NCBI GenBank assembly: GCA_964534375.1
Contig: CAZHPN010000069.1
Location: forward strand, 1 to 27,532
Length of the DNA stretch: 27,532 nt
From: an uncultured bacterium
GTDB lineage: Bacteria; Lernaellota; Lernaellaia; Lernaellales; Lernaellaceae
Direction: 5' to 3'
Position numbers and translations under genes: made by a program. A model generated the notes under the pieces. The model ran no database searches, was not told where the DNA came from, and was given only the letters and a program-made list of their open reading frames with translations. Of the stretch, positions 4,376 through 25,205 are shown in pieces; within the stretch, counting starts at the first letter, position 1; every line of letters starts with the position of its first letter.

Positions 4376-4407
4376 AAAAGAAAGCCCGGCGTTTGGGACG
4401 CCGGGCT
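4376..4407 (-). terminator. Intrinsic terminator of the minor-pilin operon
   Basis: Minus strand AGCCCGGCGT-CCCAA-ACGCCGGGCT (10-bp stem) followed by TTCTTTT, 36 nt after the stop at 4444. Confidence 0.8.
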
Positions 4408-4443: not shown

Positions 4444-7400
4444 CTATGGCGTCGGCGCGGGCGTCGGCGACGGCGGCTGCCCGGGAGGCTGCGAATTCGA
4501 ATTGTTCGGCGCCGGGGTCGGCGAATTCGCGTCCTGCGGCGTTGGGTTGGTCGGCCGCACCGGCAGGCGCGGTCGCTTATTCTCCGGCGTGGGCACGTAG
4601 GGCTTGCGCGTAGGCGGCTGCACCTTATCCGAATCGTTCACTTCGTTTGGCACGTGCGCCAGCGCCGACGGCGAATGCCGGTGCAGCAGTTTGAGTTGAT
4701 CCGCCACTGTCTTCGGGCGAGCGATTTCGACGCCGCGCGGCCAGGGCTTGCCGATAAACGCGCCGGTCGGCTGGTCGGGACCGCGCCGCTCATCGCTGTC
4801 GCGATCTCGGCGACGCGTCGGCGGGTCGGGGTAATTGGGCGGGGACAATCCGGGAGGCGGGCACTCGCCGCAATACGGATGCACGCGAACGTTCGAGAAG
4901 TAGAAGCCGTCGTTTCCCTGTTGGGGATCGGGATTCGAGCCGTGCATGTCTTCGGGGTTCACGTACGGATCGGACCAGAACCCGAGGCGACCGACGCCGG
5001 TCGGGAACGTCGGGCTGAGGCCCGGATCCGCCATCCCCGGCGTCAAGTCCGAATTGTAGAAGTTGCACTGCTCGCCGGCGCAATTGGGCACGTGGCTCGG
5101 CGCGCACGGCACCCCGGAGATCAACGGCGGCACGTATTGTTGCAGGTTGTTCCACGCCCGGTTCGTCGTCGTGTACCCCAACTGCGGTTTGACGTTGGCC
5201 TGGTACATATCGCCGCACTGGCCGTTCATGTCGCTGCAGGTCGGCTTCTGGAAATCGCGGACGCCCGGGTACTGCCAGCCGTTGCCGCCGGACCAGTCGG
5301 GCTCGGACCACCAATACAGGTACATCTGGTTCGTCGTGGCGTTCGTGCAAACGAGAACCTGGTTGACCCACCACTGGTCGTCGTAGCAGCCCGTCTTCGT
5401 TACGCCGGTGTCCCCGTACTTGCAGATGTTCGTTTCGATGTTGAAGTTGCCGCCCGGACAGTCGCCCTGCGTGCAGTTGTACTGCGACGTCGCCTCGACC
5501 TGGTAGTCGGGCCACGCGAGGTAACCGACGCGATAGCCGACGGTGGCGCCGTCGCGCATATCCTGTTCGAGGAACCACGTATCCGGGGCGGTCGACAGGT
5601 CGTAGCTCGGCGACGGCCGACCGCGGACGGCCAGACCCATGCGCCGCTGCACGATATTGCTGCGCCAGTGCCAGTGCATCAGGAAGTTTTGCTGAACCTG
5701 GGCGGTATTGGCGCCGCAGTACGCATTGCCGCTTTGGTCCTGGAAGTTCGACCACAAGAAGGCCCGCGGGAACAACGCCAGCAGATCTGCCGAGCAGTTC
5801 TGGTAGAACCGGTCTTCGTAGAAGAACCGCGTAATGCCATCGTAGCCCGGCCACAGCGGTTGGGGTTCGACCGAGGAGTCGCAGGGGCCGCAATCCGGAC
5901 TGCAACCGCCGCCGAAGGGACCATCGTAATAACAGACGTCGAGGCTGCTGTCATGGCATCCGTTGTCGCCGCACAGGCAGTTATTGCAGTCGTCGCCGGA
6001 GCAGGCGCAAAACACGTTGTAGAACGACGTCAATCCGAGCGTGTAGACGCAGTGGGGAGACAGCGCGAAGAAATCGCCGAGGGTGGTGATGTTGATCGCC
6101 TTGTAAACACTCGGGAACGTATACCGGTCGCCCCGCTGATTCGGCAGCCGGCACATATTCGGATCGAGGTCCAGGAAGCCGTACGGCTCGGGGGCGGCGT
6201 CGTTGACGCCGGGAATGCCCTGGCCGAGCCATAACGGATGTCCGGCCTGACCGTTCGCCGGATCGCTGTAGCAATCCTCCCAGACGATGTTGTGATTGAA
6301 CGGGTAGAAGTAACTCGCGCTGGTTCCGGGCGAGGTGTCCCAGTTCGATTGGTAGAAGTTGTTCGGAATCACGGTCAACCAATTGTTCGGAACCGACCAG
6401 TACGGGTGTGCGCTGTTTAGCTGCAGCGGCACGCCGCAGACGCCGTCAGCGGGATTGCCGCCGCAGTTCGGGCAGACGGGATAGCCCTTGCTCCCGCAAT
6501 ATGCCGCGCCGCTTCCTGGGTACGAGCTGTCGTTCTGCATATTGTCGGGCGTCCACAGATAGGAGAGCCAGCGGTAGTTGCCGCCGCCCGCACGATTGCC
6601 AAAGTCGCCGATTGCGTTGTTCGTCGGAGGCCAATAGGTCAGGCTCCCGGCGCCGCCGTAATCCATGTCCCATGGGCCGGCGCCGGCCGCGCCCGTGTTA
6701 TTCCACCACGGATAGCAAGTGTTCGTGCTGCTGAAATTGGCCACGAGGTAATTGCCCGGGTCGACCAATTCGCGGCAGAACGTCGCCGATGGGCCGATCG
6801 CGCCCGAGGCGCAGGTGTACGGCAACTGGCTGCCGTAGGTCGTTCGCACTTGAACGACATACTTGTAGGCGTAATTGCCGTCGAGATACTCCTTGAACAG
6901 CCAACGCCGGGGGTCTTGCGGATGCGTATCCACTTCTTCAAAGGCGCCGTTGAGGAATTGCTGATAGGCGCCCTGAACGACGCCCGGCTGCGTAGGATCG
7001 AACTGGTAACTCCAGCAGTAGCTAAAGGGATGCCCCTCGGCGCTGGTCGCCACGCACTGCAAGTTCCAAACGTTGTTGCCGCCGAAAGGAGCGAAATTCT
7101 GCGAACTGGCGCCGCCGGCCCACTTGGTGTTCGGCGTCAGCATATATTGCACGGGATTATTTTGCGGCGCGTACGCCGGCGAATTGATGAAGGTATTCCA
7201 ATCGATGACGTTGGACGCCGGCTGCGAGTAACGCTTGACCACCCAGTACAGGCTCGCGTCCTGCGTCTGGCTGCGCTTGTAGCTTGTCTGCGGGCTCGGC
7301 AGCCGATCGTACAGGTAGAAACCGAAGGCGCCCGTCGTGCAGTCCGAGCCGAATTCGTTCGCCGAAACGCCGGCCGCGTTGCATCCGGGCGCGTTCCACG

Positions 7401-10400
7401 GCGGCTCCGCCACGCCGTTGGGCAAGCTGACCGGCGTCGCGTTCGGCGCCGACCCGTTCGGCACGCACGCCCCTGGCGTATTCGGCCGGTCGATAATGAT
7501 GGAAGTCGGTCCGTAGGACTCCGGCGTCGAGATGCCGAGCAAGACCAGCCGGATGCCGCATTCCGTCGACGTCGACGCCAACTCCTGTTGCGGGCACGCG
7601 TACCAGAGGCTGTATTCGTCTTCTTCGCCGACCCGGCCCACCGTCGTTGTGTCCTCAAAAACCGAATTTCCCGCCCCGTCGCCGCCCGGCACCAGACCGC
7701 CAAGGTTCCCCGTCGACCAACCGCCGCCCCCGCCGACAACCCGATACGACAGGAGACCGTTGTCGAACGGCACCGAGCCGTCGGCGATAACGCCCGAAGC
7801 GTAGGCGTAGACATATTCGCCGCTGTTGGCGCCGCTCTGCGCGTTCCCGTTGATGACCGCGGTTCCGCCCTTCGCCGATTGCTGTTCGAGAAAGTCCGTC
7901 GTCGAAGGAATCGGCGCGACGGAGTAGTTCGCGTCCAGCGAGCCCGAGCACACGGAGCTGCAGTCATAGAACACCCGCTGGTTGCACGAGGCGCCGAATC
8001 CCTGCCACGTGCCCGAGTTCGGGAAATAAACGGGGTTGCCGTTGCCGTCGGCATAGAGGGCGGCCGCCACCATGTACACGTAGTTCGGCGTCTGGGAGTA
8101 GTCGTTGTAGGCCGGCGGCAGCGACCCGCCCGACCCCGGCGGAGTGCCGGGAGGAATGGTCGGCTGGTTGGGAGACGGTTGGGGCCAATTGCCCGCAACC
8201 AACTGCCAGTCGTTGTTTGTATCTCGGTTGCCGGCGCTCAAGTTTTGGTCGACCCAGTACGCTTGGAGCTGCGAGTCGTTTTCCGTCCAGGTCCACGAAA
8301 GTTTCGTCTGGGCCGTCATCTGATTCACCTGGAGGGAAAGGTCTGTTGGGAACATAATCAGCGTTCCCTGAGGACCGCCCTGGGTGATGAAGAGACCGGA
8401 ATTGGGATCGGGGATGTTATACGTCGACGGATCCGTGAGAGCGCCCGGCCATTCCCACGTCCGGTACACGAAGTAGTTCGACGGAATCATGAAGGTGTTC
8501 GACGAGCAGAACTGACTCAAGCTCGAATTCCACTGCAACGAGATGGCCACCGATTCGTTCGTCACCAGACTGTCGCCGGGATCGAGTTCGTTGGACGACG
8601 TGTCCGCGCCCGTGAAATAGAGCGGCGGCGAGAACAGCGGCCGCGGTACGCTCGTGTTATTCTTGGTGGCGTCGAACGTTTGTACGACGTAGCCGCCGCA
8701 CTGGGTCACCAGATGGGCCGGCTGCGACAGGCAATCGGCCGGTTCGCCGTCTTCCGGGTTGGCGTGGTACGATTTCACCACGTAGTGGTACATGTTCTCG
8801 GTGCAGGCGTTATTCGTGACGTTGCCCGGTTGGCAAATCCCGAATTGCGAGCCGGTCAGCGGCGGCGGCGAGCCGGCGGATTTGCCGGTTGCGCCCTCTT
8901 CGTCGCGCCAGATGTAATACGTGGCGCCGCCATTGGTCCATTTGAAGAAGCTGAACTGTGCGGCTTGCGGCGATTGCACGGTCGCGTACTCCGCCTCCCA
9001 AATTGTCGTCGGCGATCGAATCACACCGTTGAAGGTAACCATGACGTTGGTGAGATCGAAGGCGGTCGACGGGACGACCTGGGCGATCGGCACCGTCCCC
9101 GTGGTGGTGTCCGGCGAACTGCCGGGACCCGTCTCCGTATTGTACAGACCACGGTAAATCCAGTAGGAATCGACTTCGCTCGCGTTCGGCGCCCCAGTCC
9201 ACTCCAACGTGATGCTGCCGAACATCGTCGGGTTGGACTGCGACGTGCGGCAGGCCGAGGGGAACCCGGTCAGCGCGGAAGGCGTGTTGCCGCCAATGCA
9301 CGCCGTGATGACCAAGGGGCACGGGGTGCTGATGGCGCCCGGCGACTTGGCGTCGCTGCTGACCGCTTCCACGCGGAAACATTGCGAAAAATATGCGAAG
9401 GTGGTAACGCCGTTGACGACGACCGAGTAGGTCGGGGCGTCGTTGGTGGCGTAAGTGTAATCGGGCGTACCGGGGACGTGCCCCCCCGCGGTGCCGTGCG
9501 CCGGCACGATCGCGAGGAACTGGTAATCGCCGGGCTCCGCCGCTCCGCCCTTGTAAAGCTTCCGATCGATTTCGTACCACAGCACGTTGTTGGCGCTGGA
9601 GGGATCGTACGTGTTGCTGTCGTTGAACGCCCCGTCGTCCGGGCTCTTGAACCAAGTGAGCTTGATGTTGGCGTCGCAGCAATCGACGGTGGCGACCACG
9701 TTGGACGGGTCGCGCGGCACACCGCCGGGATTCGGCGGACCGGACTTCACGAGGTTGCGGGGCTCGATGGCCGTCCGGACTTCGCTTTCGTGGAAGTGAT
9801 AACCGACGGCCCGCGGATTGTTGTAGTTTGGATCCGGGTTCTTGGAAATGGTGGTGATCGTCAATTCGATGTGGTGCAGCGCGTAGTCCAGAACGTTGCG
9901 GTCGATCTGGCCGTTCAGGTTATAATCCTGCCAGGTTCCGGAAACCATTTCGTCGTTGGAATTCGCACTGACCAGGAAGACGGCCCCGGCTTCCGGGGTA
10001 TAGGCGCCGCCGAAGTTCGGTTGGTAGCTGTACGAGCCGGTCAGCAGGTTGCCGATTTCCTGGCTGCTCAGGGCGCCGTTGCCGGCCACGTTGCCCCACA
10101 AGGTGTCGGGCTGGGTGGCGTCGAAGTTCCACGCCCCCCAATAGGTGAACATCGGCACGAGCCGTTGCGGCGTCGAATCGCTGGGGTTGTTGGAGGGGAA
10201 ATAGCCAACCTCGGTGCCGTTTTCGACGCCGTCGAAATGCACGCCGTAGGCGACCAACTGATCGTTCAGCACCGGCGTGGTCGCATTGATCTGGCGGCGG
10301 AGCACGCGTTCGTACGGCGAATAACTGAAATTCATGCCCTGGCTGATCGCATCGCCGCCGGGTTGCGGATTCGACATGTAATAGCGGACGGTTTGGGCGT

Positions 10401-10821
10401 TGTTTTGCCAATTGCGCAAATGCTGGTACGAATACTTGGCGCCCGGGCCGTAGTTGAGCTGGTACTGCGGGCCGCCAGTCGACGAGTACGGCATCATCCC
10501 GTCCGTGTTGTCGATCTGGCCGTTGAAGACCAATTCCCACGGCGCGGCGTAAATGAATATCGGTTCGCCGCCCAGAACGTTGACGTTGCGGCCGGCGAGC
10601 ATCACGTCGTTGCGCAACTTGGAAACGGCGCCGCGACCCGCCTGCTGCGTTTCCACGATGTCTTCCTGGAAGCGCACGGTGCGGTTGTAGGCCGTAAACA
10701 CGCCATAAACCGCGGCGACGAGGATCGCGCTCAGGAAGCTCGCGATCAACAGTTCCACCAGCGAAAAACCGCGACGGTTTTGGCCCAGTGTCAGCAGCGC
10801 ACGACGAAACGGCCGAGGCAT
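4444..10821 (-). CDS. Giant PilW-like type IV minor pilin with FN3-like, Cys-rich, lectin-like and Pro-rich C-terminal extension, 2125 aa
   Basis: Class III signal RRG|FSLVELLIASFLSAILVAAVYGVF with Glu5; PilW-type helix QQAGRGAVSKLRNDVMLAG; pilin domain ends at EPRNL; AGGAG RBS 7 nt before ATG 10821, preferred over 10851. Confidence 0.88.
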   Translation of the reverse strand: MPRPFRRALLTLGQNRRGFSLVELLIASFLSAILVAAVYGVFTAYNRTVRFQEDIVETQQAGRGAVSKLRNDVMLAGRNVNVLGGEPIFIYAAPWELVFNGQIDNTDGMMPYSSTGGPQYQLNYGPGAKYSYQHLRNWQNNAQTVRYYMSNPQPGGDAISQGMNFSYSPYERVLRRQINATTPVLNDQLVAYGVHFDGVENGTEVGYFPSNNPSDSTPQRLVPMFTYWGAWNFDATQPDTLWGNVAGNGALSSQEIGNLLTGSYSYQPNFGGAYTPEAGAVFLVSANSNDEMVSGTWQDYNLNGQIDRNVLDYALHHIELTITTISKNPDPNYNNPRAVGYHFHESEVRTAIEPRNLVKSGPPNPGGVPRDPSNVVATVDCCDANIKLTWFKSPDDGAFNDSNTYDPSSANNVLWYEIDRKLYKGGAAEPGDYQFLAIVPAHGTAGGHVPGTPDYTYATNDAPTYSVVVNGVTTFAYFSQCFRVEAVSSDAKSPGAISTPCPLVITACIGGNTPSALTGFPSACRTSQSNPTMFGSITLEWTGAPNASEVDSYWIYRGLYNTETGPGSSPDTTTGTVPIAQVVPSTAFDLTNVMVTFNGVIRSPTTIWEAEYATVQSPQAAQFSFFKWTNGGATYYIWRDEEGATGKSAGSPPPLTGSQFGICQPGNVTNNACTENMYHYVVKSYHANPEDGEPADCLSQPAHLVTQCGGYVVQTFDATKNNTSVPRPLFSPPLYFTGADTSSNELDPGDSLVTNESVAISLQWNSSLSQFCSSNTFMIPSNYFVYRTWEWPGALTDPSTYNIPDPNSGLFITQGGPQGTLIMFPTDLSLQVNQMTAQTKLSWTWTENDSQLQAYWVDQNLSAGNRDTNNDWQLVAGNWPQPSPNQPTIPPGTPPGSGGSLPPAYNDYSQTPNYVYMVAAALYADGNGNPVYFPNSGTWQGFGASCNQRVFYDCSSVCSGSLDANYSVAPIPSTTDFLEQQSAKGGTAVINGNAQSGANSGEYVYAYASGVIADGSVPFDNGLLSYRVVGGGGGWSTGNLGGLVPGGDGAGNSVFEDTTTVGRVGEEDEYSLWYACPQQELASTSTECGIRLVLLGISTPESYGPTSIIIDRPNTPGACVPNGSAPNATPVSLPNGVAEPPWNAPGCNAAGVSANEFGSDCTTGAFGFYLYDRLPSPQTSYKRSQTQDASLYWVVKRYSQPASNVIDWNTFINSPAYAPQNNPVQYMLTPNTKWAGGASSQNFAPFGGNNVWNLQCVATSAEGHPFSYCWSYQFDPTQPGVVQGAYQQFLNGAFEEVDTHPQDPRRWLFKEYLDGNYAYKYVVQVRTTYGSQLPYTCASGAIGPSATFCRELVDPGNYLVANFSSTNTCYPWWNNTGAAGAGPWDMDYGGAGSLTYWPPTNNAIGDFGNRAGGGNYRWLSYLWTPDNMQNDSSYPGSGAAYCGSKGYPVCPNCGGNPADGVCGVPLQLNSAHPYWSVPNNWLTVIPNNFYQSNWDTSPGTSASYFYPFNHNIVWEDCYSDPANGQAGHPLWLGQGIPGVNDAAPEPYGFLDLDPNMCRLPNQRGDRYTFPSVYKAINITTLGDFFALSPHCVYTLGLTSFYNVFCACSGDDCNNCLCGDNGCHDSSLDVCYYDGPFGGGCSPDCGPCDSSVEPQPLWPGYDGITRFFYEDRFYQNCSADLLALFPRAFLWSNFQDQSGNAYCGANTAQVQQNFLMHWHWRSNIVQRRMGLAVRGRPSPSYDLSTAPDTWFLEQDMRDGATVGYRVGYLAWPDYQVEATSQYNCTQGDCPGGNFNIETNICKYGDTGVTKTGCYDDQWWVNQVLVCTNATTNQMYLYWWSEPDWSGGNGWQYPGVRDFQKPTCSDMNGQCGDMYQANVKPQLGYTTTNRAWNNLQQYVPPLISGVPCAPSHVPNCAGEQCNFYNSDLTPGMADPGLSPTFPTGVGRLGFWSDPYVNPEDMHGSNPDPQQGNDGFYFSNVRVHPYCGECPPPGLSPPNYPDPPTRRRDRDSDERRGPDQPTGAFIGKPWPRGVEIARPKTVADQLKLLHRHSPSALAHVPNEVNDSDKVQPPTRKPYVPTPENKRPRLPVRPTNPTPQDANSPTPAPNNSNSQPPGQPPSPTPAPTP

Positions 10822-10831
10822 GAGTTCGCTC

Positions 10832-13450
10832 CTACCACACATTGTCAGCAATCGGTTCGGTGTCCGGCAGCAATTGCCAGGCGGTGATTTCCCAGGCGGC
10901 GTATCCGAAGGGCACGACGTTGGCGGTCGTGGCCGGCCCCTTTTGACCGCCCAAGCCGAGTTCGCCCGGGTACGGCGGCAGCAGAAATTTCAAGCGCGTA
11001 TCGTATTGATAGGTGATGCTGGAAAAACCCATCTTGTTGCAGGTTCCCGACGTGTCATTCGGCCCTCCCCCCGCGCGGCACGTCGACGACACGTCGTCAT
11101 ACGCCAATCGGCCGGCGATATTCTGCACGACCGCGCCGATGATGGTGATGGTCCCGGACCCGTTGCCGCCCAACTGGTCGAAGGCCTGGGCGTTCGGGTA
11201 CGGCGGAAACGACAAGTCGCCGTACCAATTCATGTTGACGGTGCGGGCCTGGGCGTAGAGGCCCGTGCGAAACTGGGCGATGTTCTGCCACGCGGCGCTG
11301 CCGCCCGGGGCCATGTCGGGCGAGATGCAATTGAACGTGCTGGACCGATTGCCGCTGACGCTGCCCCGGGTGCATTGGAAACCGTAGGAGATCAGGACGG
11401 CGTTCAGGTTTTTGTTGCCTTTGTCGTCGAGAACCGGCGGCGTGTCGAGCAGACCGACCGGCGTGTACGGCAGGTTGTTCAGCGTATTGTCGGGATCCGA
11501 CCAGTCGTCGCGCCATTGATGGCGCCAGAGAGCCGGGTTGGCCCACTGGTACGACCCTGGATAGCTGTTCGGAATAATGATATTTCCGCCCGCGATCAGG
11601 GCCAGCATATCGGGCTGCCGCAGGTCGTTGTACATCGGCACCAGCATGAAGGCCGGATTCGTTTCGTATTGAACTTCATGATCGAGATAAATGTCGCCCG
11701 TCGCTACGATCGTGATCTGGCCGCGCACGATGCCGCTGACCAACACGTCGCCTTCCACAAAAATGATGCCGTTGAACTGTTGGTTCGACCCGTCGCCGTC
11801 GACGTTGGGAGGGGTAAAGCCCCGGGCCGGGGCCGCCAGGAACGTATAGCTCGGCGAGATGTCATACGGGTTGTAAGGACCGTGGCAACCCGCCGTGCCC
11901 GGGCAGACCCCCGGGGTGCTGTTGTTGTTGCGCGTCATGATCGCTCGCGCATCGAAGTACGACTTGCCGAAGTCCAGTTGCTGGTCGTTGAAGTCCTGGC
12001 CGCTCACCATGATCGACGGCAGGTTGTGGGAGGTCGCGCCGACCAGCGCTTTGTTCATCGCGTTGTTCCGATTCGACATGTTGTCGCCGTACATCGCCGC
12101 CTGCCACATATCGTTGTCGAGCGGCGTCGGGTTCGCGGGATCCGGGAACGGCAGGCGATACACCATCATCGCGCCGGGATATTTGTCGAAATTGGGGCAG
12201 TTGATCAGCGGGCTTTGACCGCAATTGACCGAGTGCGTAATGCGCGACGTCACCCGGGTCACGGAATTGTCCCCGTTCGCGCACGGCGTGCCATTGTTGG
12301 CCTCATTCGGCCAAATGTCAGTGCGGAACAGGATCTTCCACACCGTTTTTTGATTCGAATAGTTCTGGCTGCCGACGGCGAAATTGAACCTGGTCGGCTG
12401 ATACAGGTAGAGATCCGCCATTTCGCGGTAGGTGGTCATCTGGCCCGTGGGGGGTTGGAGGATGGTTTCCAGGCGCGGCGGCATGATCGGCTTGACGCTG
12501 TTGCGAAAACGTTGGTTCGGTTGCACCGTCTGCTGGACGCTTTGGCCGCCGTAGGTTTGGTTGGTGGCGTTCGTGAAATTCCGCAAGTCGCGCCAACGGG
12601 CCTCGCCGGAGATCGCCGGAACGCCGCGGACGAACAAGGCGGTGGTCTGCCGGTTGGTGTTGGTGCCGTCGAAATATTGCTCCGTGTAATATGTGCCATT
12701 GGAGCCGTTGGTGTTGTTGGGCTCGTAAACCGTATTGCCGATGTAAAGGTCGCCGTTCACTATGTCTTCGTTTAGAAGCACCGTTTGACAGTTCCGCCAC
12801 GTGGTCGACGGCGCGTTGCAGAATTCGTTCGTGGCCGAGTGGTACGTGCGCTGCCAGGGCGTCTGGTTCATGGCGAAGTAGGCGTAATCCCAAATGGAGT
12901 GCGGCCGCACGTACGCGCGAAACACCCGCTGAACCTTCGTGAAATTGTTTCGCACCAAGGCCGTGATCGCCACCGGCCGCGAAATCCCGCGATCGAAATA
13001 CGCCTGCAAATCCTGGGGATCGAGATAGGCCTCGACGTGCATGTTGGGGTTGACGCCGATGGTGTTGTTCGTGCCCGTCGTGGTGAAATACAGTTCTTGG
13101 CGGGAGGAATGCGACGTGTCGCTGTTGTCGGCCAGAACCTGGACGGTCGGCAACAGCAAGTCGGTCGGGTTGTTCGCGGTGTTGATCGGATCGGGGACGC
13201 CGCGGAAGTTCAACCCCAGACCTTTATTGGTCGTAAACAGGCCGCCTTCCAGATACGACAAGTGGGAGATGACGCGATCGATCGACTGCTGCGCGTAAAA
13301 GAACATCAACTGACTTTCGTTGAGGTTCGTGTTGATGGTTTGTTCCGTGCCGCTGGTCACCATCGCCACGATCCCGAGGCCCGTCACCAGGAACAACATC
13401 AGCACCGCCGCGACAATCGCATAACCTTCATTCCGTTGCAGCACGCGCAT
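10832..13450 (-). CDS. Large PilX/GspK-like minor pilin, 872 aa
   Basis: NEG|YAIVAAVLMLFLVTGLGIVAM: prepilin-like helix lacking Glu5, typical of PilX/GspK; C-terminal GIIFVEGDVLVSG..GDIYL..DMLALIAGGNIII and YQYDTRL..PP motifs seen in extended PilX-like proteins. Confidence 0.82.
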   Translation of the reverse strand: MRVLQRNEGYAIVAAVLMLFLVTGLGIVAMVTSGTEQTINTNLNESQLMFFYAQQSIDRVISHLSYLEGGLFTTNKGLGLNFRGVPDPINTANNPTDLLLPTVQVLADNSDTSHSSRQELYFTTTGTNNTIGVNPNMHVEAYLDPQDLQAYFDRGISRPVAITALVRNNFTKVQRVFRAYVRPHSIWDYAYFAMNQTPWQRTYHSATNEFCNAPSTTWRNCQTVLLNEDIVNGDLYIGNTVYEPNNTNGSNGTYYTEQYFDGTNTNRQTTALFVRGVPAISGEARWRDLRNFTNATNQTYGGQSVQQTVQPNQRFRNSVKPIMPPRLETILQPPTGQMTTYREMADLYLYQPTRFNFAVGSQNYSNQKTVWKILFRTDIWPNEANNGTPCANGDNSVTRVTSRITHSVNCGQSPLINCPNFDKYPGAMMVYRLPFPDPANPTPLDNDMWQAAMYGDNMSNRNNAMNKALVGATSHNLPSIMVSGQDFNDQQLDFGKSYFDARAIMTRNNNSTPGVCPGTAGCHGPYNPYDISPSYTFLAAPARGFTPPNVDGDGSNQQFNGIIFVEGDVLVSGIVRGQITIVATGDIYLDHEVQYETNPAFMLVPMYNDLRQPDMLALIAGGNIIIPNSYPGSYQWANPALWRHQWRDDWSDPDNTLNNLPYTPVGLLDTPPVLDDKGNKNLNAVLISYGFQCTRGSVSGNRSSTFNCISPDMAPGGSAAWQNIAQFRTGLYAQARTVNMNWYGDLSFPPYPNAQAFDQLGGNGSGTITIIGAVVQNIAGRLAYDDVSSTCRAGGGPNDTSGTCNKMGFSSITYQYDTRLKFLLPPYPGELGLGGQKGPATTANVVPFGYAAWEITAWQLLPDTEPIADNVW

Positions 13451-13473
13451 GGGACTCACCCTTCTCCCTCGCC

Positions 13474-14154
13474 CTAATATTTCGCGATAAACATGTGCCG
13501 TTCGATTTCGTGAACGCCCGCGCCGGTGGCGCCTTGGACCGCGTTGCCCGTGCCGCCGACGCCCTGGCCCAGCCCGTCGTACCAGGATACGCGGACGCGA
13601 ACCATTTCGAAATCTTCGCCGCGGTATCCGCCGTTGGTGGTGTCCCATTCCCCGACGCTGGCTCCGGTGTTGAGCGACGCCCCCGAAATCGGTTGCCAGT
13701 TATTGTTTTGCGGATTGTTCGGATCCGTCGGATTCGAGATCGCACCCTCATTCGTATTCGTGGACGTGGAGGACCAAATCACGTTGTTGGCAGAACCCAG
13801 GTAGCCGTTGCGCACGACTTCGCTGACCCGCGTAAACGCGCGGCCGCGGTCGTCGTAGACGGTTTCCGTGCCGAAGTACTTGGCGTTGTTCGCCGTGACG
13901 CCCGGGTACTGCGTCGGATTGGTCAGCACGACATCCTGGTAGACCGGCCACGCGTAGATTTGGTCCAGTCGCTGCTGGGCCAGGAAATTCGCAAAGGCGT
14001 AGTCTTTACCCAATGAATTGGCCTTGATCGAAAAGGCCAGCATCGGCACCAGCGCCAGAATTCCCACCGTCAGGATCATGATGGCAATCAACACCTCGAG
14101 CAGCGAAAAACCCGCCTCGCGCCTTCGGTTCGCGCTCTCCTGGATCGCTTTCAC
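13474..14154 (-). CDS. pilV: PilV-like type IV minor pilin, 226 aa
   Basis: AG|FSLLEVLIAIMILTVGILAL, ANFLAQQRLD, C-terminal VRVRVSW; GTG start with AAGGAG RBS. Confidence 0.82.
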   Translation of the reverse strand: MKAIQESANRRREAGFSLLEVLIAIMILTVGILALVPMLAFSIKANSLGKDYAFANFLAQQRLDQIYAWPVYQDVVLTNPTQYPGVTANNAKYFGTETVYDDRGRAFTRVSEVVRNGYLGSANNVIWSSTSTNTNEGAISNPTDPNNPQNNNWQPISGASLNTGASVGEWDTTNGGYRGEDFEMVRVRVSWYDGLGQGVGGTGNAVQGATGAGVHEIERHMFIAKY

Positions 14155-14226: not shown

Positions 14227-14796
14227 TTACCGCCACTGGGACGCGTTTGCATAAAACTGCCAATCGCGAATCCGGCCCGTGGTCGCTTCCCAATCGACCG
14301 CCCGTTGGCGATCCGGCCGCATGCCCGTCGTCGACAGGTCCTCAAAGGGAATGATGTACGCGGCCCCGGACACCGACGCCGTGCCATCGCCGTAGAAGAG
14401 AACACTGGTCTGGCCATTCGGAATATCGATGCCCGCCGGATTGGCGGGCCACGGGTGCCCGGGCACGGCGGGGAGCCCTGGGCAAGAGCCGAATTTGATG
14501 CCGCCCTGGAGATAGTACGTCTGAGTCAGATTCGAGACGACGGTGTACGCGCCATCGGGACCATCGAACGCGACTTGCACCGGCTGGCCGTTGCGGACGG
14601 CTTGCGCCCGCGCCACCCGCAGGTGCCCCGCCATGTCGCGCGCCGAAGCGTTGACGCGGATCAACGCCCGGTAATGAAGTATCGACATCCAGCCGATGCC
14701 CGTCAGAATGGCGATCAGACCAATGACCACCATGAGTTCCACCAGGGTGAATCCCTCTTTTTTCTCTGTCTTCTCCGGGCCGTTCATTGGTTCCAT
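14227..14796 (-). CDS. FimT/FimU/GspH-like minor pilin, 189 aa
   Basis: EG|FTLVELMVVIGLIAIL, LRVARAQAV helix, FYGDG and TGRI motifs; AAGGAG RBS. Confidence 0.88.
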   Translation of the reverse strand: MEPMNGPEKTEKKEGFTLVELMVVIGLIAILTGIGWMSILHYRALIRVNASARDMAGHLRVARAQAVRNGQPVQVAFDGPDGAYTVVSNLTQTYYLQGGIKFGSCPGLPAVPGHPWPANPAGIDIPNGQTSVLFYGDGTASVSGAAYIIPFEDLSTTGMRPDRQRAVDWEATTGRIRDWQFYANASQWR

Positions 14797-14829: not shown

Positions 14830-14845
14830 TGCAATACCTATGCCT
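14830..14845 (-). promoter_or_regulatory. Sigma54 -24/-12 promoter of the minor-pilin operon
   Basis: Minus strand AGGCATAGGTATTGCA = GG-N10-GC with TTGCA; adjacent to a sigma54 activator gene. Confidence 0.85.
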
Positions 14846-14929: not shown

Positions 14930-14965
14930 GTGAAAACTTTTCACAGTACTAGGAAAACTTTTCAC
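14930..14965. promoter_or_regulatory. Tandem palindromic upstream activator (bEBP) sites
   Basis: GTGAAAA-C-TTTTCAC perfect palindrome (14930-14944) and AGGAAAACTTTTCAC (14951-14965); the 13-mer GAAAACTTTTCAC repeats at 21-bp spacing. Confidence 0.7.
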
Positions 14966-16368
14966 TATTCCGGCGGTTCGTCTCCGTTGGCGGCAGACTC
15001 GATCTGCAGACCGAATTCCTTGATTTTGTACAGCAGCGCGCGAAAGGAAAGGTCGAGCAGCTTGGCCGCCTTGCTCTTGTTCCCCAATGTCCGCTCGAGC
15101 GCGGCGACGATCAACCGGCGCTCCAAGTCCCGCACATTTCGCTTGATCGACAGATCCTCGATCGCCGGTTCCGACGGCGCCGACGGCCGCCGCACCCGTT
15201 CCGGCAGATCCTCCGGCGCAATGACCGGCCCCGCCGCGACCAGCACGGCGCGTTCCACCGCGTTTTCCAATTCTCGAACGTTGCCCGGCCAGGGATACGC
15301 TTCTAGAATTCGCAACGCCTCGGGGCCGATTTCCAGGCCCGGCAAACCGTGCTGGCGCGTAAACTTGCTGATGAAATGGCGGGTCAACAAGGGCAGGTCG
15401 CCCTTGCGGTCGCGCAGCGGCGGAACGCGCAGGTGAAAAACGTTCAGGCGGTAAAACAGATCTTCGCGGAACAGCCCTTGCGCGACCGACTCCTCGAGAT
15501 TCCGCGCCGTGGCCGCGACGACGCGCAGGTCGACGGCGATTTCCTCGTTCGCGCCGAGCGGCCGCAGCCGCTGATCCTGCAGCACGCGCAACATTTTCAC
15601 TTGCAAACGCAACGGCAATTCGCCGATTTCGTCGAGAAACAGCGTCCCGCCGCTGGACGCGGTGAGCAGGCCCGCTTTGGCGGCGACCGCGTCGGTGAAC
15701 GCGCCTTTCGCGTGGCCGAACAATTCGCTTTCCAGCAGGTTCTCGGGAATCGCGCCGCAATTGATCGCGACGAAGGGCGCGTCGGCGCGCGGACTGTTGC
15801 GGTGGATCGAACGGGCGATCAGTTCCTTGCCGGAGCCGGATTCGCCCGCGATCAGCACGGTCGTTTTGAACGCCGCGATCTTGCGAACCAGCGCCAACAA
15901 CTCGTGCATGCGCGGATCGTCGGTGAGCAGTTCGCGATCCGCCGCCGCCCGCGCGGCCTCGCGCAACGACGCGTTTTCCGCGCGCAGATCCTGAATTTCC
16001 GCGGCCCGCCCGAGCACCTTGAGGATCTCTTCTTTCTTGAACGGTTTGCTGACGTAATCGAAGGCGCCCATGCGCATCGCCGCCACGGCTTCTTCGACCT
16101 GCGCATAGGCGCTCATCATGATGATCGGTTTGCGGAAACCGGCCGCCAGCGCGCGTTGCAGAAACGTCATGCCGTCCATTTCCGGCATCCGCAGGTCGCA
16201 CAGGACGAAGTCGGGGGCCAGACTCTGCAACGCGAGCAGCGCGACCTGGCCGTTTTCGGCGGCGGAGACCTTGAAGCCTTTCTTGGACAGCAGCACGGTC
16301 AGGGAAAATCGCAAGCCTTCTTCGTCATCGACCAAGAGCACGTGCTTGTTATCGTTCGGTTTGGTCAT
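14965..16368 (-). CDS. Sigma54-dependent response regulator (NtrC/PilR/AtoC family), 467 aa
   Basis: Receiver LLVDDE..CDLRMPEMDG; AAA+ GESGSGKE, ESELFGH, GAFTDA, LFLDEIGE, FREDLFYRLNV, WPGNVRELEN; Fis-type HTH GNKSKAAKLL. Confidence 0.96.
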   Translation of the reverse strand: MTKPNDNKHVLLVDDEEGLRFSLTVLLSKKGFKVSAAENGQVALLALQSLAPDFVLCDLRMPEMDGMTFLQRALAAGFRKPIIMMSAYAQVEEAVAAMRMGAFDYVSKPFKKEEILKVLGRAAEIQDLRAENASLREAARAAADRELLTDDPRMHELLALVRKIAAFKTTVLIAGESGSGKELIARSIHRNSPRADAPFVAINCGAIPENLLESELFGHAKGAFTDAVAAKAGLLTASSGGTLFLDEIGELPLRLQVKMLRVLQDQRLRPLGANEEIAVDLRVVAATARNLEESVAQGLFREDLFYRLNVFHLRVPPLRDRKGDLPLLTRHFISKFTRQHGLPGLEIGPEALRILEAYPWPGNVRELENAVERAVLVAAGPVIAPEDLPERVRRPSAPSEPAIEDLSIKRNVRDLERRLIVAALERTLGNKSKAAKLLDLSFRALLYKIKEFGLQIESAANGDEPPE

Positions 16369-18025
16369 TGGCTTCCTGTACGGGGAAAATGAGCGTCACG
16401 CACGTTCCCGCCCCTTCCCGACTTTCGACGCGGATCATGCCGCCGGCCGTCGCGGTAAGTTGCTGGCAAACGGCCATGCCCAGGCCTGTGCCCTTGCCTT
16501 GCGGCTTGGTCGTAAAAAACGGGTCGAACATGCGGCCCAAGACCTCGGACGACATCCCCGGGCCCGTGTCGGTCACGTGCAGGCGAACCGTCATCGCGCC
16601 CGCGAACGGTTCGCCCATTTCGGAGAAAATGATGCCACGGCGGCGCAAATCCGTAAAGGGAACCTCGGTTTCGTCCGGCCCGCCGGGCAGGCGGGCTTCC
16701 ATGAGATCGGCCCGGTTGTGGACGGCGGTCTCGGCGAAAATGTCGATCACGCCCCGGCCGTTCATCGCGTCGGCGGCGTTGAGGAGAATGTTGAGCAGGA
16801 TTTGGTTGAAATGCTGTGGATCCATCAACACGCGCGGCAGGCGCTCGGCCGGCGCAAAGCGGATCTCGAGGTTGTCCAGCCCGCGCTGGCCTTTCATCAG
16901 CGACACGGTCTCGGCGGCCCGCGCCGCCACATCGACGGGTTCGGCGAGCGTTTCCTTGACGCGGGCGAAATTCAACAATTCGCGCATGGTGCGATCGATG
17001 CGTTTGATTTCGGTTTCGAGCCGATCGACGACTTTCCGTTCGGCGTCGGGCAGACCGGCGTCGCGCAGGATCTCGACGTAGCCGTAAATGGCGCCCAGCG
17101 GATTGCCGACTTCGTGCGCCACGCCTGCCGCCACGCGGCCGACGTACGCGAGCCGATCCGAATGCAGCAATTGGTCATGGGCGAGTTTCAGTTCTTCGTT
17201 GATCCGCTCCAAGCGTTCGACTTGCCGCCGGCCGACGGCGTCGCGATCTTGCAAGGTCGCCGCCAATTTGCCGAGCGCTCGGCCCAAGCGGCCGATCTCG
17301 CCCGCGCCTTTGGTCTTCAAGGCGACGCGGTAGTCGCCGGTGGACATGTCTTCGGTCGCCGCCACCATCGCGTCGATCGGCTTCACCAGCACCTGCCAAA
17401 GAATGACCGAACCGAACAAGATGATCACCACCGCGTCCAAAAATGCGTACAGGAACAGGAAGTGCCGGGTTTTCGCCAGTGCGTCGATCATGTCGTCGAG
17501 CGGCAGACTGAAGCGCGCGGCCCCGAATACGGCGCCTCCCTGATAAAGCGGGCCGGAAAAAATGACTTCCGGCGCGTTCGATTCCAAGCCCAGAATTCGG
17601 TGGATGAGGAGCCGTTCCGTCATCGCGCGGACGAGATCGGGTTCCGCCAGCGCGAGACCGACCATCGACCCCCGGCTCGACGCGACGATGGCCTCCTCTT
17701 TGTTCACGATGATCAGGCTGCGCAACTCCAGGTTCGTGACCATCGCCTGGACGATCTGGCCGAGCGACACGCGGTCGCCGCCGGGGCGCGTTCGCCATTC
17801 GGCGTTCTCCGACAAATCCAGTTGCGCCTGAATCGCCAACAGCGCGGCGCGACCCTGGGCCCGCTTTTGTTCGATCAAATGGTGCTGCAGCAGACTGGTC
17901 ACCACGGAGCCGAACAAGACGATCATCGCCACGGTCAGGCCGGCGATGAAGAGCACGACGCGCGCCCGCAAACCGGTGAACGGACCGAGCGAAAAATCCT
18001 CGCGAAGTTGCGATTTAGCCGCCAA
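16349..18025 (-). CDS. HAMP-containing sensor histidine kinase, cognate of the regulator, about 558 aa
   Basis: Two TM helices, HAMP, AHEVGNPL H-box, NAADA, DTGPGM, FDPFFTTK, GTGLG; overlaps both neighbours; TTG start uncertain. Confidence 0.94.
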   Translation of the reverse strand: MAAKSQLREDFSLGPFTGLRARVVLFIAGLTVAMIVLFGSVVTSLLQHHLIEQKRAQGRAALLAIQAQLDLSENAEWRTRPGGDRVSLGQIVQAMVTNLELRSLIIVNKEEAIVASSRGSMVGLALAEPDLVRAMTERLLIHRILGLESNAPEVIFSGPLYQGGAVFGAARFSLPLDDMIDALAKTRHFLFLYAFLDAVVIILFGSVILWQVLVKPIDAMVAATEDMSTGDYRVALKTKGAGEIGRLGRALGKLAATLQDRDAVGRRQVERLERINEELKLAHDQLLHSDRLAYVGRVAAGVAHEVGNPLGAIYGYVEILRDAGLPDAERKVVDRLETEIKRIDRTMRELLNFARVKETLAEPVDVAARAAETVSLMKGQRGLDNLEIRFAPAERLPRVLMDPQHFNQILLNILLNAADAMNGRGVIDIFAETAVHNRADLMEARLPGGPDETEVPFTDLRRRGIIFSEMGEPFAGAMTVRLHVTDTGPGMSSEVLGRMFDPFFTTKPQGKGTGLGMAVCQQLTATAGGMIRVESREGAGTCVTLIFPVQEANDQTER

Positions 18026-18794
18026 GGTACCACCGCAAAATCAGCGGACTGAACCAAATCCACAGCACGGCGCCCAACGCCAGAAACGGCCCGAAGGGGA
18101 TTTCGACGCGCCGGTCCTTGCCGAGCAGCAAGATCATCGCGAGCCCGGCCAGCGTGCCGACGAAACTGCCGCACACCATGGTGAACACCACGCCCTTCCA
18201 GCCGATGAACGCCCCAATCATCGCCAACAATTTCGGGTCGCCCATGCCCATGCCCTCGCGCCGGGCCACGAGGTAGTAGCCGCCCGCGACGGCCAGCAAC
18301 GCGCCGCCGCCGAGCAGGATGCCCAGACCGCCGTCGAGCAGACCCTCGCGCCAACCTTCCGACAGGACGAACACGTTCAGCAGCAGTCCGATGGGGATGC
18401 CCGGCAGGCTGATCGCGTTGGGAATGATTTTGAATTGCAAGTCGATCAAGGAGACGACCAGCAGCGCGGCCATCAACACGTACCAAACCAGGCCGGCCCG
18501 CAGCCCGAACCGCAGCAAACTCCCGGCGAGGAGCACGCCGCTGACCATCTCGACCAGAAAATACCGGCCGCTGATCCGGCCCCGGCAACGGCGGCACTTC
18601 CCGTTGAGGAGCAAATACGAGAGCAGCGGAATGTTGTCGTAGAAGCGAATCGGCGCGCCGCAGGTCGGGCAATGACTGCCCGGATAGACAATGGACTCGC
18701 CGCGGGGCAAGCGCCAGACGACGACGTTGAGGAACGAGCCGATCGTGATGCCGAACAAAAAACCGACGATGACGATGAAGACTTGCGGACTCAC
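18015..18794 (-). CDS. pilD: Prepilin peptidase/N-methyltransferase, 259 aa
   Basis: GSFLNVVVWRLP, SHCPTC, GKCRRC, IDL..IIP, GMGMGDPKL, IPFGPFLA. Confidence 0.97.
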   Translation of the reverse strand: MSPQVFIVIVGFLFGITIGSFLNVVVWRLPRGESIVYPGSHCPTCGAPIRFYDNIPLLSYLLLNGKCRRCRGRISGRYFLVEMVSGVLLAGSLLRFGLRAGLVWYVLMAALLVVSLIDLQFKIIPNAISLPGIPIGLLLNVFVLSEGWREGLLDGGLGILLGGGALLAVAGGYYLVARREGMGMGDPKLLAMIGAFIGWKGVVFTMVCGSFVGTLAGLAMILLLGKDRRVEIPFGPFLALGAVLWIWFSPLILRWYLGG

Positions 18795-18828: not shown

Positions 18829-20445
18829 TCACGGCGCCGCCGGGACCGGGCGCACGCGCAAAATCACGACGTCGTCGGCCGACGGCGGCGTCGGGAAGCG
18901 ACGCACCATCGTGAACGAATTCCGCCACTCGGGCTCGGCGAACGCTTCGTACATGGCGATGATCCCCAAATGGTCGACGACGACGTTCACGCCGCGGCTG
19001 CGGAGGTACGCCAGCAATTTCTTCTCCCGAATGGCGCGCGCCGCGTCGGGGTTCACCACGCCATCCAAATCGATCACCGGCAATCCGGAAAACGCCGACT
19101 CGATGCCGCTGTTGAAGGCCGCGGCCCGCAGCCCCGGCTCGGCGGCCGCCATCTGCCGCAACGTCGCCGCCCCGTCCAAATATACTTTCTGCCAATCGTG
19201 AAAGCCATTGCGCAGCAAGCCCGCCCCGGTGCGCGCGAAACCCGCCGCCATGCCCGCGGCCAGCGTCAGCGCCAGCGCGCCGGCGAGCCGCCGCTGGACG
19301 GCGACGCGATCCAAGTAGCCGAGCAGCAACGCCGTCGCCAGCGCAAGCAAAATCTGCGCCGGCAGAAAATACCACATTTTCTGCTGCCAGAAATAAAACA
19401 CGTAAAAAGCCCAAACCGTCGCTCCCCAGAGCAGCGCGGCCGCCGCGCCGCGTTCCCGGGCCTCGAAAACCCGCGTTCCGGACGCCATTTTGCCGGTCAG
19501 CGCCGCCACCGCCAATCCCGCGAGAAAAACGACTGCCAGCGGCGCGCCCGGCAATGACGTGAAACGCAAGAAAAAGTCGAAAACGCCCTTGTTCAACTGC
19601 TGGACGAAAATCGACCATGCCGAATCGCCGGTCAATGCCGCCAGCTTCCGTTGCGTGTAGATCAACGCCGTGAACGAACCTTGCGTCACCGTGCCGAACC
19701 GCGCGAGACTGAAAACCACCCACGGCGAAACGACGGCCACGGCCACGCCGGCGGCGGCGACCGCGCCGACGACCCGCCGCCGCAGGCGCTCCAGATTCCG
19801 CCGCGCCGGCAACCAATGCGCGACCACGACGTCGACCGCCAGCGCGAAGGCGAACAGAATCGCATCGGTGCGCGCCAGCAGCGCCAGGCCGAGCAGCAGC
19901 CCGACCGGCAGCCATTTTTTCGGCGGTGGGTCGCCGCTGCGCAACGGCAGGTAGGCGAGCAAGGTCGCCAGCACGAAGAGAATCATCAGCGGCGCCTCGA
20001 CGCCCATCAACTCGGTGAAGATCGCGAACGGCGAAAGCGCCCAAAAGCCGGCCGCCCACGCGCCGCCGACCGGGCCCGAAACCCGCAGCGCCAATCGCCA
20101 GAGCAAGAAAGCGTTGCCGGCGCCGATGACCGCCAGCGCCAGCGTCAATAACCGGGCCGCGGGGACCGCGCTGCCGGCCAGACGCACGGCCGCCATGGAA
20201 ACCAGCATCCACAGCGGGTGATAGCCGTTGGTGGCCGCGACGCCGTCAAAGGTCGAGCCGTTGCCGGCCAGGATATTTTCGGCGATGCGCAAATAGTAAA
20301 AAGCGTCGTCCGCGAGGCACAGCGGAATCAACCGTTCGGGCGGCTGCGCGGCGAGCGCCAATCGCAGAAAAAAACCGGCCAGGATCAAGGTGACGGCGAC
20401 GAGCGCGAGTCGCCTTTCGCGCCGGTCGGTCGCATTTTGCGCCAT
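18829..20445 (-). CDS. Polytopic GT-C-type (ArnT/PMT-like) glycosyltransferase, 538 aa
   Basis: DDAFYYLRIAENI..G.TFDG..TNGYHPLW first-loop motif, GVE, ARTD, IDLDGVVN; many TM segments; GGGAG RBS before ATG 20445. Confidence 0.75.
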   Translation of the reverse strand: MAQNATDRRERRLALVAVTLILAGFFLRLALAAQPPERLIPLCLADDAFYYLRIAENILAGNGSTFDGVAATNGYHPLWMLVSMAAVRLAGSAVPAARLLTLALAVIGAGNAFLLWRLALRVSGPVGGAWAAGFWALSPFAIFTELMGVEAPLMILFVLATLLAYLPLRSGDPPPKKWLPVGLLLGLALLARTDAILFAFALAVDVVVAHWLPARRNLERLRRRVVGAVAAAGVAVAVVSPWVVFSLARFGTVTQGSFTALIYTQRKLAALTGDSAWSIFVQQLNKGVFDFFLRFTSLPGAPLAVVFLAGLAVAALTGKMASGTRVFEARERGAAAALLWGATVWAFYVFYFWQQKMWYFLPAQILLALATALLLGYLDRVAVQRRLAGALALTLAAGMAAGFARTGAGLLRNGFHDWQKVYLDGAATLRQMAAAEPGLRAAAFNSGIESAFSGLPVIDLDGVVNPDAARAIREKKLLAYLRSRGVNVVVDHLGIIAMYEAFAEPEWRNSFTMVRRFPTPPSADDVVILRVRPVPAAP

Positions 20446-20558
20446 CTGTTCTCCCGATAAGCTGGCACTTTCGGCGCATCCTATCATCCGCGGAAGTTGA
20501 GTGTCCATCAAAACCTGGAAAGCGCGCCGCCCTGATTTTTCGGCGCGCGCTCAATTCC

Positions 20559-22951: not shown

Positions 22952-23032
22952 GCGAGCGACCAACGTCGAACCGGACCGCGCGCCGCAACCCAGTTGCCTT
23001 GCGGCGTTTTTTCCGTGGAGAACGAACGCGCC

Positions 23033-24873: not shown

Positions 24874-24971
24874 GCGGGCCGCAGCCGGCCGCGAAAACAG
24901 CCCCGCGTCGCCCGAACGCTCCGGCGCCGCGTGAATTTTCGCCCCTTCCCGGCGGCCAATGCGCGCGATTC

Positions 24972-25000
24972 TTGGTGTTATTATCAGATATAAGTATTAT
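24972..25000 (+). promoter_or_regulatory. Possible sigma70 promoter in an AT-rich patch
   Basis: TTGGTG-17 nt-TATTAT upstream of the structured region. Confidence 0.4.
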
Positions 25001-25006
25001 TGTTCG

Positions 25007-25104: not shown

Positions 25105-25125
25105 CGCGCGTGAAATAATTTCCGC

Positions 25126-25170: not shown

Positions 25171-25205
25171 TGCCACCAAAAAACAGCGAGTGAAAGGGCC
25201 GGCGC

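Follow-up and report, generated by a model that had tools for sequence, protein, structure and literature searches.

Pilins that carry an additional folded module are an established class of surface protein. Raynaud et al. defined such proteins as modular pilins, counted more than 1,200 of them in InterPro with 264 architectures, and proposed that the extra modules are displayed at the pilus tip (PMC8179133; this article, PMC9934059, PMC12075869, PMC12918778, and PMC9324843 are cited here and below for the parts of their text that were available to us), and tip-located modular pilins onto which adhesin or lectin modules have been grafted are called widespread (PMC8179133, PMC9934059, PMC12075869). 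The closest described system is PilC of Streptococcus sanguinis (7oa7/7oa8), in which a short linker connects a pilin module with a concanavalin-A-like (ConA-like) lectin module; it binds glycans and has been proposed to sit in a minor-pilin tip complex (PMC9934059, PMC8179133). Here, we describe a protein with the same succession of parts that is encoded in a stretch of 27,532 nt (the window; contig CAZHPN010000069.1) from an uncultured bacterium of the Lernaellota, where a single open frame of 2,125 codons on the minus strand, window:4444-10821(-), runs from an ATG at 10821 to a TAG at 4444-4446. We judge this giant pilin, with moderate confidence, to be an outsized modular minor pilin that belongs to a type IVa pilus, takes the PilW/GspJ slot of the tip, and serves as a tip-displayed, glycan-binding adhesin.

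The giant pilin departs from PilC in size, host, and composition. The giant pilin has 2,125 aa but the solved PilC chains only 350 and 376 residues, and PilC is bimodular and comes from a monoderm host without a secretin, whereas the host of the giant pilin has secretin genes, a diderm feature. Furthermore, the giant pilin has ~1,300 residues of stalk and unassigned sequence that separate its pilin module from its head, the pilin module is probably of the core GspJ/PilW type, unlike that of PilC, and sequence similarity between the two proteins is not detectable. With GspJ (XcpW, EpsJ) and PilW it shares Glu5 within a class III signal, a disulfide-free head of two sheets, and neighbors of the H, I, and K types, but it is about 10 times longer than the solved GspJ chains (152-198 residues), matches no GspJ/PilW hidden Markov model (HMM), and stands in the gene order H-I-K-J. 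Like the tip adhesins PilY1/PilC and MshQ, it would be a large (>1,000 aa) adhesive protein with a minor-pilin complex as its carrier; PilY1, however, is not a pilin and docks on the K pilin by a C-terminal β-strand (PMC12918778), while the putative adhesin is here covalently joined to the J pilin. The same tip principle of a pilin plus extra domains, with paralogous tips per genome, is found in CofB/TcpB, ComZ, GspK, TadG/CpaL (~600 aa), and KilN (PMC8179133; PMC12918778; PMC12075869), the last being large pilins that act as interchangeable tips of the Myxococcus Tad-like Kil pili (PMC12075869). These proteins belong, however, to other filament classes (T4b, Com, type II secretion system (T2SS), Tad) or to other slots, and none in the available text comes near 2,000 residues or has the domain set of the giant pilin.

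Because of the work of Raynaud et al., of KilN, and of the adhesin domains that we found in 9 of 24 scanned related proteins, the modular principle has to be regarded as known, and a first-pass annotation of this DNA was behind the literature in treating pilin-adhesin fusions as unusual. The giant pilin falls under the modular-pilin definition of Raynaud et al. 2021 (PMC8179133), its extra module being recognized by fold only, without an InterPro or Pfam signature. By a refuting condition that the first-pass annotation had set itself, the class of architecture counts as described, but this family and this size are not described in the literature that we searched; no description of the giant pilin family was found there, and pilins of equal length may be listed in supplementary files such as Dataset S1 of PMC8179133. 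For Lernaellota, the available text of PMC9324843 does not mention pili. What is new is the sheer size, the cargo on a J-type core pilin of a type IVa pilus in a diderm, the 873-aa partner in the K slot, the apparent lack of PilY1 throughout the class, and a family without database coverage.

The first 357 residues form a genuine prepilin. The class III signal, ...QNRRG|FSLVELLIA (N-terminus MPRPFRRALLTLGQNRRG|FSLVELLIA; RRG|FSLVELLIASFLSAILVAAVYGVF), is intact, as the first-pass annotation had claimed, with Gly-1, Phe+1, and Glu+5 around G18|F19, and it scores above the cut-off of both Pfam N_methyl (27.7 bits, cut-off 21.2) and TIGR02532 (20.9, cut-off 16.3). An AlphaFold2 (AF2) model of residues 1-366, computed from a 28-row alignment, reached a predicted local distance difference test score (pLDDT) of 85.6 and a predicted template modeling score of 0.83, and it shows the lollipop architecture of pilins, a long N-terminal helix (residues 21-74) on a β-sheet head, here of two sheets with the last strand at 345-352. 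Upon structural re-alignment, two chains of the Thermus pilin TTHA1219 gave Z scores of 9.5 and 9.3 (153 and 149 aligned residues) and six GspJ-family chains (XcpW/EpsJ) gave 6.9-8.6 (136-180 aligned, root-mean-square deviation (rmsd) 3.6-4.4, residues ~50-360); all top eight rows of the VIA search were pilins, while the lower rows covered the N-terminal helix only (Z ≤5.3) or were poor (Z ≤2.3). GspJ-type structures (XcpW, EpsJ) also made up the best four Foldseek matches. On the level of sequence families, the NCBIfam search of the giant pilin returned only TIGR02532 and PRK10557 (E 0.045, 13 bits vs a cut-off of 120) and no PilW/GspJ model, and searches of the PDB sequences with phmmer and a family profile matched just the N-terminal helix (Geopilin, E 0.0077-0.48), apart from chain 1k85_A of chitinase A1 (E 0.67), an FN3 domain. 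Because PilW/GspJ HMMs fail to match, the label PilW-type that the first-pass annotation had chosen is supported by fold and operon context and not by family membership. All 55 cysteines of the protein sit in the extension and none in the pilin module. The Asp/Asn-rich loop of the pilin head, with its DxNxNGxxD pattern (299-307), is a candidate EF-hand-like Ca2+ site as judged from its residues, and it would be comparable to the calcium site of PilY1 and to loops of the dockerin type, but it is located here within the pilin head itself. A complex prediction for the pilin module (19-362) with the PilV-like protein, run without controls, gave a score of 0.08 against a mark of 0.32, which speaks neither for nor against binding.

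Beyond EPRNL (residues 353-357; 9751-9765), the frame continues through VKSGPPNPGGVP for 1,768 more residues, in agreement with the linker and the roughly 1,770 in-frame, adhesin-like residues reported for it earlier. FN3 domains had been proposed for a check in this extension, and only module 1 received indirect support as FN3-like. Pfam fn3 did not match at any threshold that we tried, either with the whole protein, with segments of it, or with 10 module-1 orthologues, which yielded single weak matches only (best NDNF Fn(III), E 0.038). The support for module 1, whose sequence follows the pattern of bacterial FN3 domains, came from hhalign: a 1,159-aa paralogous pilin of the same genome, whose C-terminal module has an FN3 pattern, aligned through that module with the module-1 profile (89% probability, E 2e-6), while modules 2 and 3 reached 21% and 0.3% in this comparison. 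In addition, an Atlas search with residues 367-1349 placed fn3-bearing clusters at 0.89-0.91 with low recognition, which we treat as a lead only. Among the modules themselves, hhalign gave 51% for M1~M3, 44% for M2~M3, and ≤2% for the remaining pairs, and we rejected the idea of the stalk as a repeat array on the ground that these module-module scores are too weak.

The C-terminal head provided a fold that the first-pass annotation had not foreseen. Its core, modeled as a β-sandwich at pLDDT 65-89, was compared with 48,161 representative chains by VIA, where 55 chains reached Z ≥8 and the top rows were mainly lectins, carbohydrate-binding modules (CBMs), DUF1080 proteins, and accessory modules of glycoside hydrolases (GH). 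Rows within 1 Z of each other count as ties by the rule of the tool. The best match was the DUF1080 protein 4jqt_B (Z 12.3, 172 aligned, rmsd 3.9), followed by CBM66 and the thrombospondin C-terminal domain (both Z 11.2), ERGIC-53 (Z 10.5-10.6), galectins (Z ~10), and the lectin module of the S. sanguinis minor pilin PilC (7oa7_A, Z 9.0 and 8.6). A search for sequence families of the head (Laminin_G_3, DUF1080, and others) returned no Pfam family at E ≤10 for residues 1350-1992 or for the orthologous segment of a relative (L011). By fold only, the predicted core is of the ConA-like lectin/glucanase type. The excess length of the C-terminal domain over that of its homologues consists of window-specific Cys-rich insertions, with residues 1350-1680 at pLDDT <50.

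The architecture is shared by a family of proteins. In a six-frame search of 41 genomes, matches were found in 22, the window's own genome (94% complete) included, all in open frames without stops; leaving that genome aside, they occurred in seven of seven genomes of the same family and in seven of seven of the second family of the class. Ten full-length homologues are single ORFs (open reading frames) of 1,236-1,767 aa that align with the window protein from the signal peptide to the CGxCPP motif, and the splitting into two genes that would have spoken against a fusion was not seen in any of them. When residues 1-1000 were run exhaustively with HMMER against a library of 1.84 billion proteins, the result was 381 proteins at E ≤1e-3 and 18 representatives at E ≤1e-30, the latter spanning 797-2,125 aa, with the window protein the longest and one of 2,024 aa the second. 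Among 24 scanned HMMER matches, the nine with adhesin-type Pfam domains above cut-off carried SdrD_B, FG-GAP, Big_1/Invasin_D3, Big_2, cadherin-like, or fn3 domains, and eight of these nine also had N_methyl (the exception being P0044). A search of genome contigs for related loci listed, among its matches, one full-length relative and at least 62 loci matching the N-terminal helix only, and a word-indexed search for homologues of the entire protein recovered nothing but the query, being too insensitive for a family at ~40% identity. Pfam covers nothing of the family beyond the 27-residue N_methyl motif.

We propose the following course for the giant pilin as a tip adhesin. The prepilin would enter the inner membrane, where the peptidase encoded four genes upstream would cut it after Gly18, as the signal and the peptidase gene suggest. 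The α1 helix and the GspJ-like head would then join the GspH-like, PilV-like, and 873-aa PilX-like proteins, and assembly would be primed on the PilMNOPQ machine; fold, synteny, and the machine genes are observed, and the tip complex itself is modeled on T2SS GspHIJK and on FimU-PilVWX of type IVa pili. Since the tip complex is the first part of a pilus to emerge, the extension of 1,768 residues, with its FN3-like module, two weaker modules, ~720 further residues, and disulfide-rich ConA-like head, would travel out with it through the secretin. For the stalk, passage as a chain of small domains is conceivable; the critical part would be the head. Outside, the head may bind a glycan while PilT-type retraction pulls on it, as the lectin fold and S. 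sanguinis PilC suggest, and an adhesin that is part of a core minor pilin would replace a separate PilY1-type adhesin.

In line with such a replacement, we found no separate PilY1 gene in the genomes searched: PF05567 had no match in any of the 17 genomes of the class, in the window's own genome, or in the giant pilin. Elsewhere it exceeded its cut-off in one of 24 other genomes and in none of 14 reference genomes, and because of that one positive among unrelated genomes the search can be said to find the family, which is the calibration on which this negative depends. In a recent model of tip licensing, PilY1 donates a C-terminal β-strand to the K pilin, and the K pilins of PilY1-less systems carry a strand of their own (PMC12918778). 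The conserved C-terminus of ~30 residues in the K-slot protein of our cluster would fit such an in-cis strand, and the giant pilin is unlikely to be the donor because its own C-terminus is variable. A bolder and more tentative picture, which we would put below an even chance, is that the pilus of this lineage gave up PilY1 and that its tip consists wholly of outsized core minor pilins, a J pilin of 1,200-2,100 aa with stalk and lectin head and a K pilin of ~800-870 aa that completes its own fold in cis. A tip of ~3,000 residues might then be threaded ahead of the fiber through a small secretin, the stalk might act as a long-reach, retractable "fishing line" for glycans, and the paralogous sets of large pilins (at least three such pilins in the genome) might be interchangeable tips.

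Modular pilins explain many functions of simple pili, and the giant family stretches this principle about fivefold in size, with the cargo borne by one of the core subunits that would prime the pilus of a diderm. It offers a test case for the size limit of folded, disulfide-rich cargo through a type IVa secretin and for a tip adhesin supplied in cis instead of by PilY1, and it adds a family of ~18 representative clusters that lack Pfam coverage outside N_methyl. The host belongs to an uncultured wetland lineage, and the ecological reading would be attachment to plant or microbial glycans.

Several observations weigh against the giant pilin as a tip-displayed adhesin. No PilW/GspJ HMM matched, N_methyl being the only Pfam match at E ≤0.01; the Foldseek E-values are weak (best 7e-3, none at E ≤1e-3), and Z scores of 7-9 are "middling" by the tool's own scale. 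The gene is encoded together with H-, I-, and K-type minor pilins, but in the order H-I-K-J instead of H-I-J-K, and in its own genome it does not lie beside pilMNOPQ. About 720 residues (963-1680), conserved in the family, lack any family match in Pfam or Atlas, the head model as a whole has a pLDDT of 44, and the best fold matches of the head are putative hydrolases (DUF1080), which leaves room for an enzymatic head. One of the 10 full-length homologues has no head, and the contigs from RNA libraries described below are compatible with expression of the gene without proving its transcription. Finally, display on the pilus, passage through the secretin, and binding are drawn from architecture and context.

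Among the alternatives, one accepts the pilin as a nucleator in the J position and keeps its extension in the periplasm, or lets it lodge in the secretin or beneath it, where it could act as a plug or a gate. A 1,768-residue extension with a head of ~640 residues and 55 cysteines is far beyond the usual load of a pilus-width channel, and the secretin is small, with 495 aa in one relative (L019) and 534 aa in the window's own genome. The homologue without a head (G004; L013:7316-11026(-), 1,236 aa) likewise bears on this question: it ends after the unassigned middle and is directly followed by a pilM-sized ORF, and because of it we regard the head as a dispensable module that is not essential to the family, so that the conserved role could be that of pilin plus stalk. 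Size alone is nevertheless no bar, because PilY1/PilC-type adhesins of >1,000 residues have been reported at pilus tips (PMC12918778), and lectin-type heads and the adhesin-type Pfam domains on related pilins make sense in an extracellular setting. We hold this alternative to be unlikely.

We give a similarly low probability to a pilus-borne enzyme, in which the jelly-roll of the head would be a catalytic DUF1080/3-keto-disaccharide-hydrolase or GH16-like module and not a lectin. This idea draws on the top fold match, 4jqt_B being a putative glycosyl hydrolase, on the further DUF1080 structures (3imm, 3u1x, 3hbk, 3h3l) and GH16/GH32 modules in the same list, and on the modular pilins with peptidase modules noted by Raynaud et al. 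(PMC8179133). Yet the scores of galectins, CBM66, L-type lectins, and the pilin lectin PilC are close behind, with ties within 1 Z, and no hydrolase HMM matched at E ≤10; a head model of pLDDT 44 does not permit catalytic residues to be assessed.

The gene neighborhood speaks to the type of filament. The minus strand of the window carries, one after another, the genes of a GT-C/PMT_2 glycosyltransferase, PilD, a HAMP histidine kinase, a sigma-54 regulator, the GspH-like, PilV-like, and PilX-like proteins, and the giant pilin (Table 1). Relatives keep the same cluster order, with pilM directly 3' of the giant pilin in three of them (L011, L019, L020). Further downstream, Pfam identified PilN, PilO, and PilP in L011; in L019 it identified PilP and the secretin, and aroB lies beyond them. 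In L013, ORFs whose sizes match follow one another in the same succession. Because PilM/N/O/P genes follow in relatives, we assign the giant pilin to a type IVa pilus and not to a T2SS. In the window's own genome, pilM and a secretin are located on another contig (C23), and several PilB/PilT-type (T2SSE-family) ATPases are present. The opposing view, a T2SS-like pseudopilus or other non-pilus type IV filament in which the extension would be an adaptor for periplasmic or secreted cargo, can point to the nearest solved folds, which are the T2SS pseudopilins XcpW and EpsJ, and to contig C62 of the same genome, where another secretin gene has a GspE/PilB-type ATPase gene beside it. However, the genes that follow in the relatives are of type IVa families and not GspL/M/C, and the cluster adjoins pilD and a PilSR-like pair, which makes this view very improbable in our estimate.

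Since the window has a G+C content of ~63% and yields many long shadow ORFs, such as 6850-10887(+) with 1,345 aa, ORF length alone is no proof of a giant pilin gene; it is the end-to-end alignment of homologues in 10 other genomes that makes the frame more than a chance one. At the junction, R355 and N356 are invariant and the following CGxPPxPPTN is conserved in all 11 aligned sequences. Neither a stop nor a chimera near 9750, either of which would have undone the earlier claim, was found: independent contigs cross 9751 unchanged. A contig from a DNA run of another sample (X2) covers 9666-10961 with 0 differences, and contigs from two DNA runs of other samples match at ≥99% identity without indels. 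RNA libraries from two different studies (X5 and X6) gave contigs matching eight and five pieces of the gene, respectively, at ≥99% identity, with coverage of 14 and 10 of 30 bins, uncovered bins not being taken as untranscribed. Neither an indel nor a joint was seen in the X2, X3, X5, and X6 contigs. The sequence data confirm a genuine gene without an assembly chimera at the junction, and the notion of two genes fused by sequencing or assembly error, or of a shadow ORF, to which the G+C content with its spurious ORFs and a two-frame N-terminal region in one relative (G016) might be thought to lend weight, is refuted as far as such data reach and has a negligible probability, given the homology in 10 genomes, the conserved junction, the contigs across 9751, and the confident pilin fold. 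In that relative (77% complete; G016:C12:80386-81802), the N-terminal region is split over two open frames of 457 and 451 aa, which may reflect a frameshift, a pseudogene, or an assembly error. The listed ORF of the giant pilin reaches back to a TTG at 10851, a start that falls within the upstream gene.

Table 1. Positions of the giant pilin's parts and of neighboring genes and signals in the window.
Feature	Position	Strand	Basis or remark
Prepilin leader, residues 1-18, ends Gly18	10768..10821	-	N_methyl, TIGR02532
Mature pilin module, residues 19-357	9751..10767	-	α1 helix with Glu5 and two-sheet GspJ/XcpW-type head ending EPRNL; AF2 model
Asp/Asn-rich loop in pilin head	9886..9957	-	N289, E291, D299, N301, N303, G304, D307, N309, L311 invariant
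Pro/Gly linker VKSGPPNPG, residues 358-366	9724..9750	-	pLDDT <50 at 362-366
Module 1, residues 367-512	9286..9723	-	FN3-like β-sandwich suggested by sequence; hhalign to paralogous pilin module
Modules 2 and 3, residues 513-962	7936..9285	-	ITLxW...EYWIYRS motif in common with module 1; weak hhalign scores
Middle region, residues 963-1349	6775..7935	-	Conserved in family; no family or fold recognized
Cys-rich C-terminal domain, residues 1350-1992	4846..6774	-	643 aa here; 361-463 aa in nine homologues
Confident head core, ~residues 1684-1984	4870..5772	-	ConA-like lectin/jelly-roll fold; structure search
CGxCPP motif closing the head (C1984, G1985, C1987, P1988, P1989)	4855..4872	-	Near-invariant in family, directly after last strand
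Pro/Arg/Lys-rich low-complexity tail, residues 1993-2125 (133 residues), and TAG	4444..4845	-	Length and sequence not conserved among homologues
Intrinsic-terminator-like hairpin and T-run, operon end	4383..4407	-	One found vs 0.3 expected
Shine-Dalgarno AGGAG	10829..10833	-	7 nt 5' of ATG 10821; overlaps TAG stop (10832-10834) of PilX-like gene; sequence read directly
PilX/GspK-position gene, 873 aa from ORF Met66	10832..13453	-	PilX_N-like N-terminus without Glu5, E 0.048; C-terminus strongly conserved
PilV/GspI-like minor pilin	13474..14154	-	TIGR02523, E 2e-11, below cut-off
GspH/FimT-like minor pilin	14227..14796	-	PF12019, 33.9 bits, cut-off 21
Sigma-54-type -24/-12 element AGGCATAGGTATTGCA	14830..14845	-	~35 nt 5' of GspH-like start
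Palindromic 13-mer GTGAAAAGTTTTC, two copies	14930..14965	-	Three matches vs 0.04 expected
PilR-like sigma-54 response regulator	14965-16368	-	Pfam
PilS-like HAMP histidine kinase	16349-18025	-	Pfam
Prepilin peptidase (Peptidase_A24)	18015..18794	-	Sole match to this family found in genome

For the middle of the giant pilin, Pfam at E ≤10 returned nothing relevant with five mid-region segments, the head, or two L011 segments, and the best Atlas score for residues 963-1700 was 0.77, with nothing usable. Transcription of the minor-pilin operon probably starts from a sigma-54 promoter that the adjacent PilSR-like pair controls. We call this promoter because of the position of its element and its conservation by eye, a GGCAY-N5-TTGC element being visible in all 11 orthologous upstream regions printed; window-wide, the sigma-54 consensus with two mismatches is not enriched (8 vs 7.1 expected). 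The palindromic 13-mer, which also occurs in four relatives (L011, L012, L013, L015), is a candidate binding site of the adjacent sigma-54 activator.

The protein in the PilX/GspK slot has 778-804 aa in three relatives and 36-42% identity across the class. It contains a repetitive "GIIFVEGDVLVSG...ITIVATGDIYLD" stretch with a β-helical look and a highly conserved C-terminal stretch of ~30 residues, and PilX_N passes its Pfam cut-off in the L011 orthologue (27.2 bits vs 25.5). In one relative (G008), the PilV-like gene occurs twice, at L018:15009-15551 and 16511-17053 on the minus strand, with identical N-terminal sequences. The GT-C/PMT_2 glycosyltransferase at 18829-20511 (-) adjoins the prepilin peptidase, and another PMT-family gene, L088:2399-4678 (-), is located near pilM on contig C23; both are candidate pilin glycosyltransferases.

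A second minor-pilin region of the window's own genome, on contig C38, comprises L087:6423-9902(-) with 1,159 aa, L087:13918-17868(-), an ORF of 1,316 aa, and L087:11272-12402(-). The two large pilins showed Pfam fn3 matches of 65 and 74 bits as well as Ig-like matches, and the third gene encodes a 376-aa PilX_N protein. Pilins of this type with ~1,100-1,300 aa recur in most relatives. Beyond the pilus genes, the window contains a Ser/Thr protein kinase and the start of a cell-division (dcw) cluster with the RsmH methyltransferase (Pfam, 323 bits), at 22994-24469 (+) and 24397-26587 (+), which are unrelated to the giant pilin.

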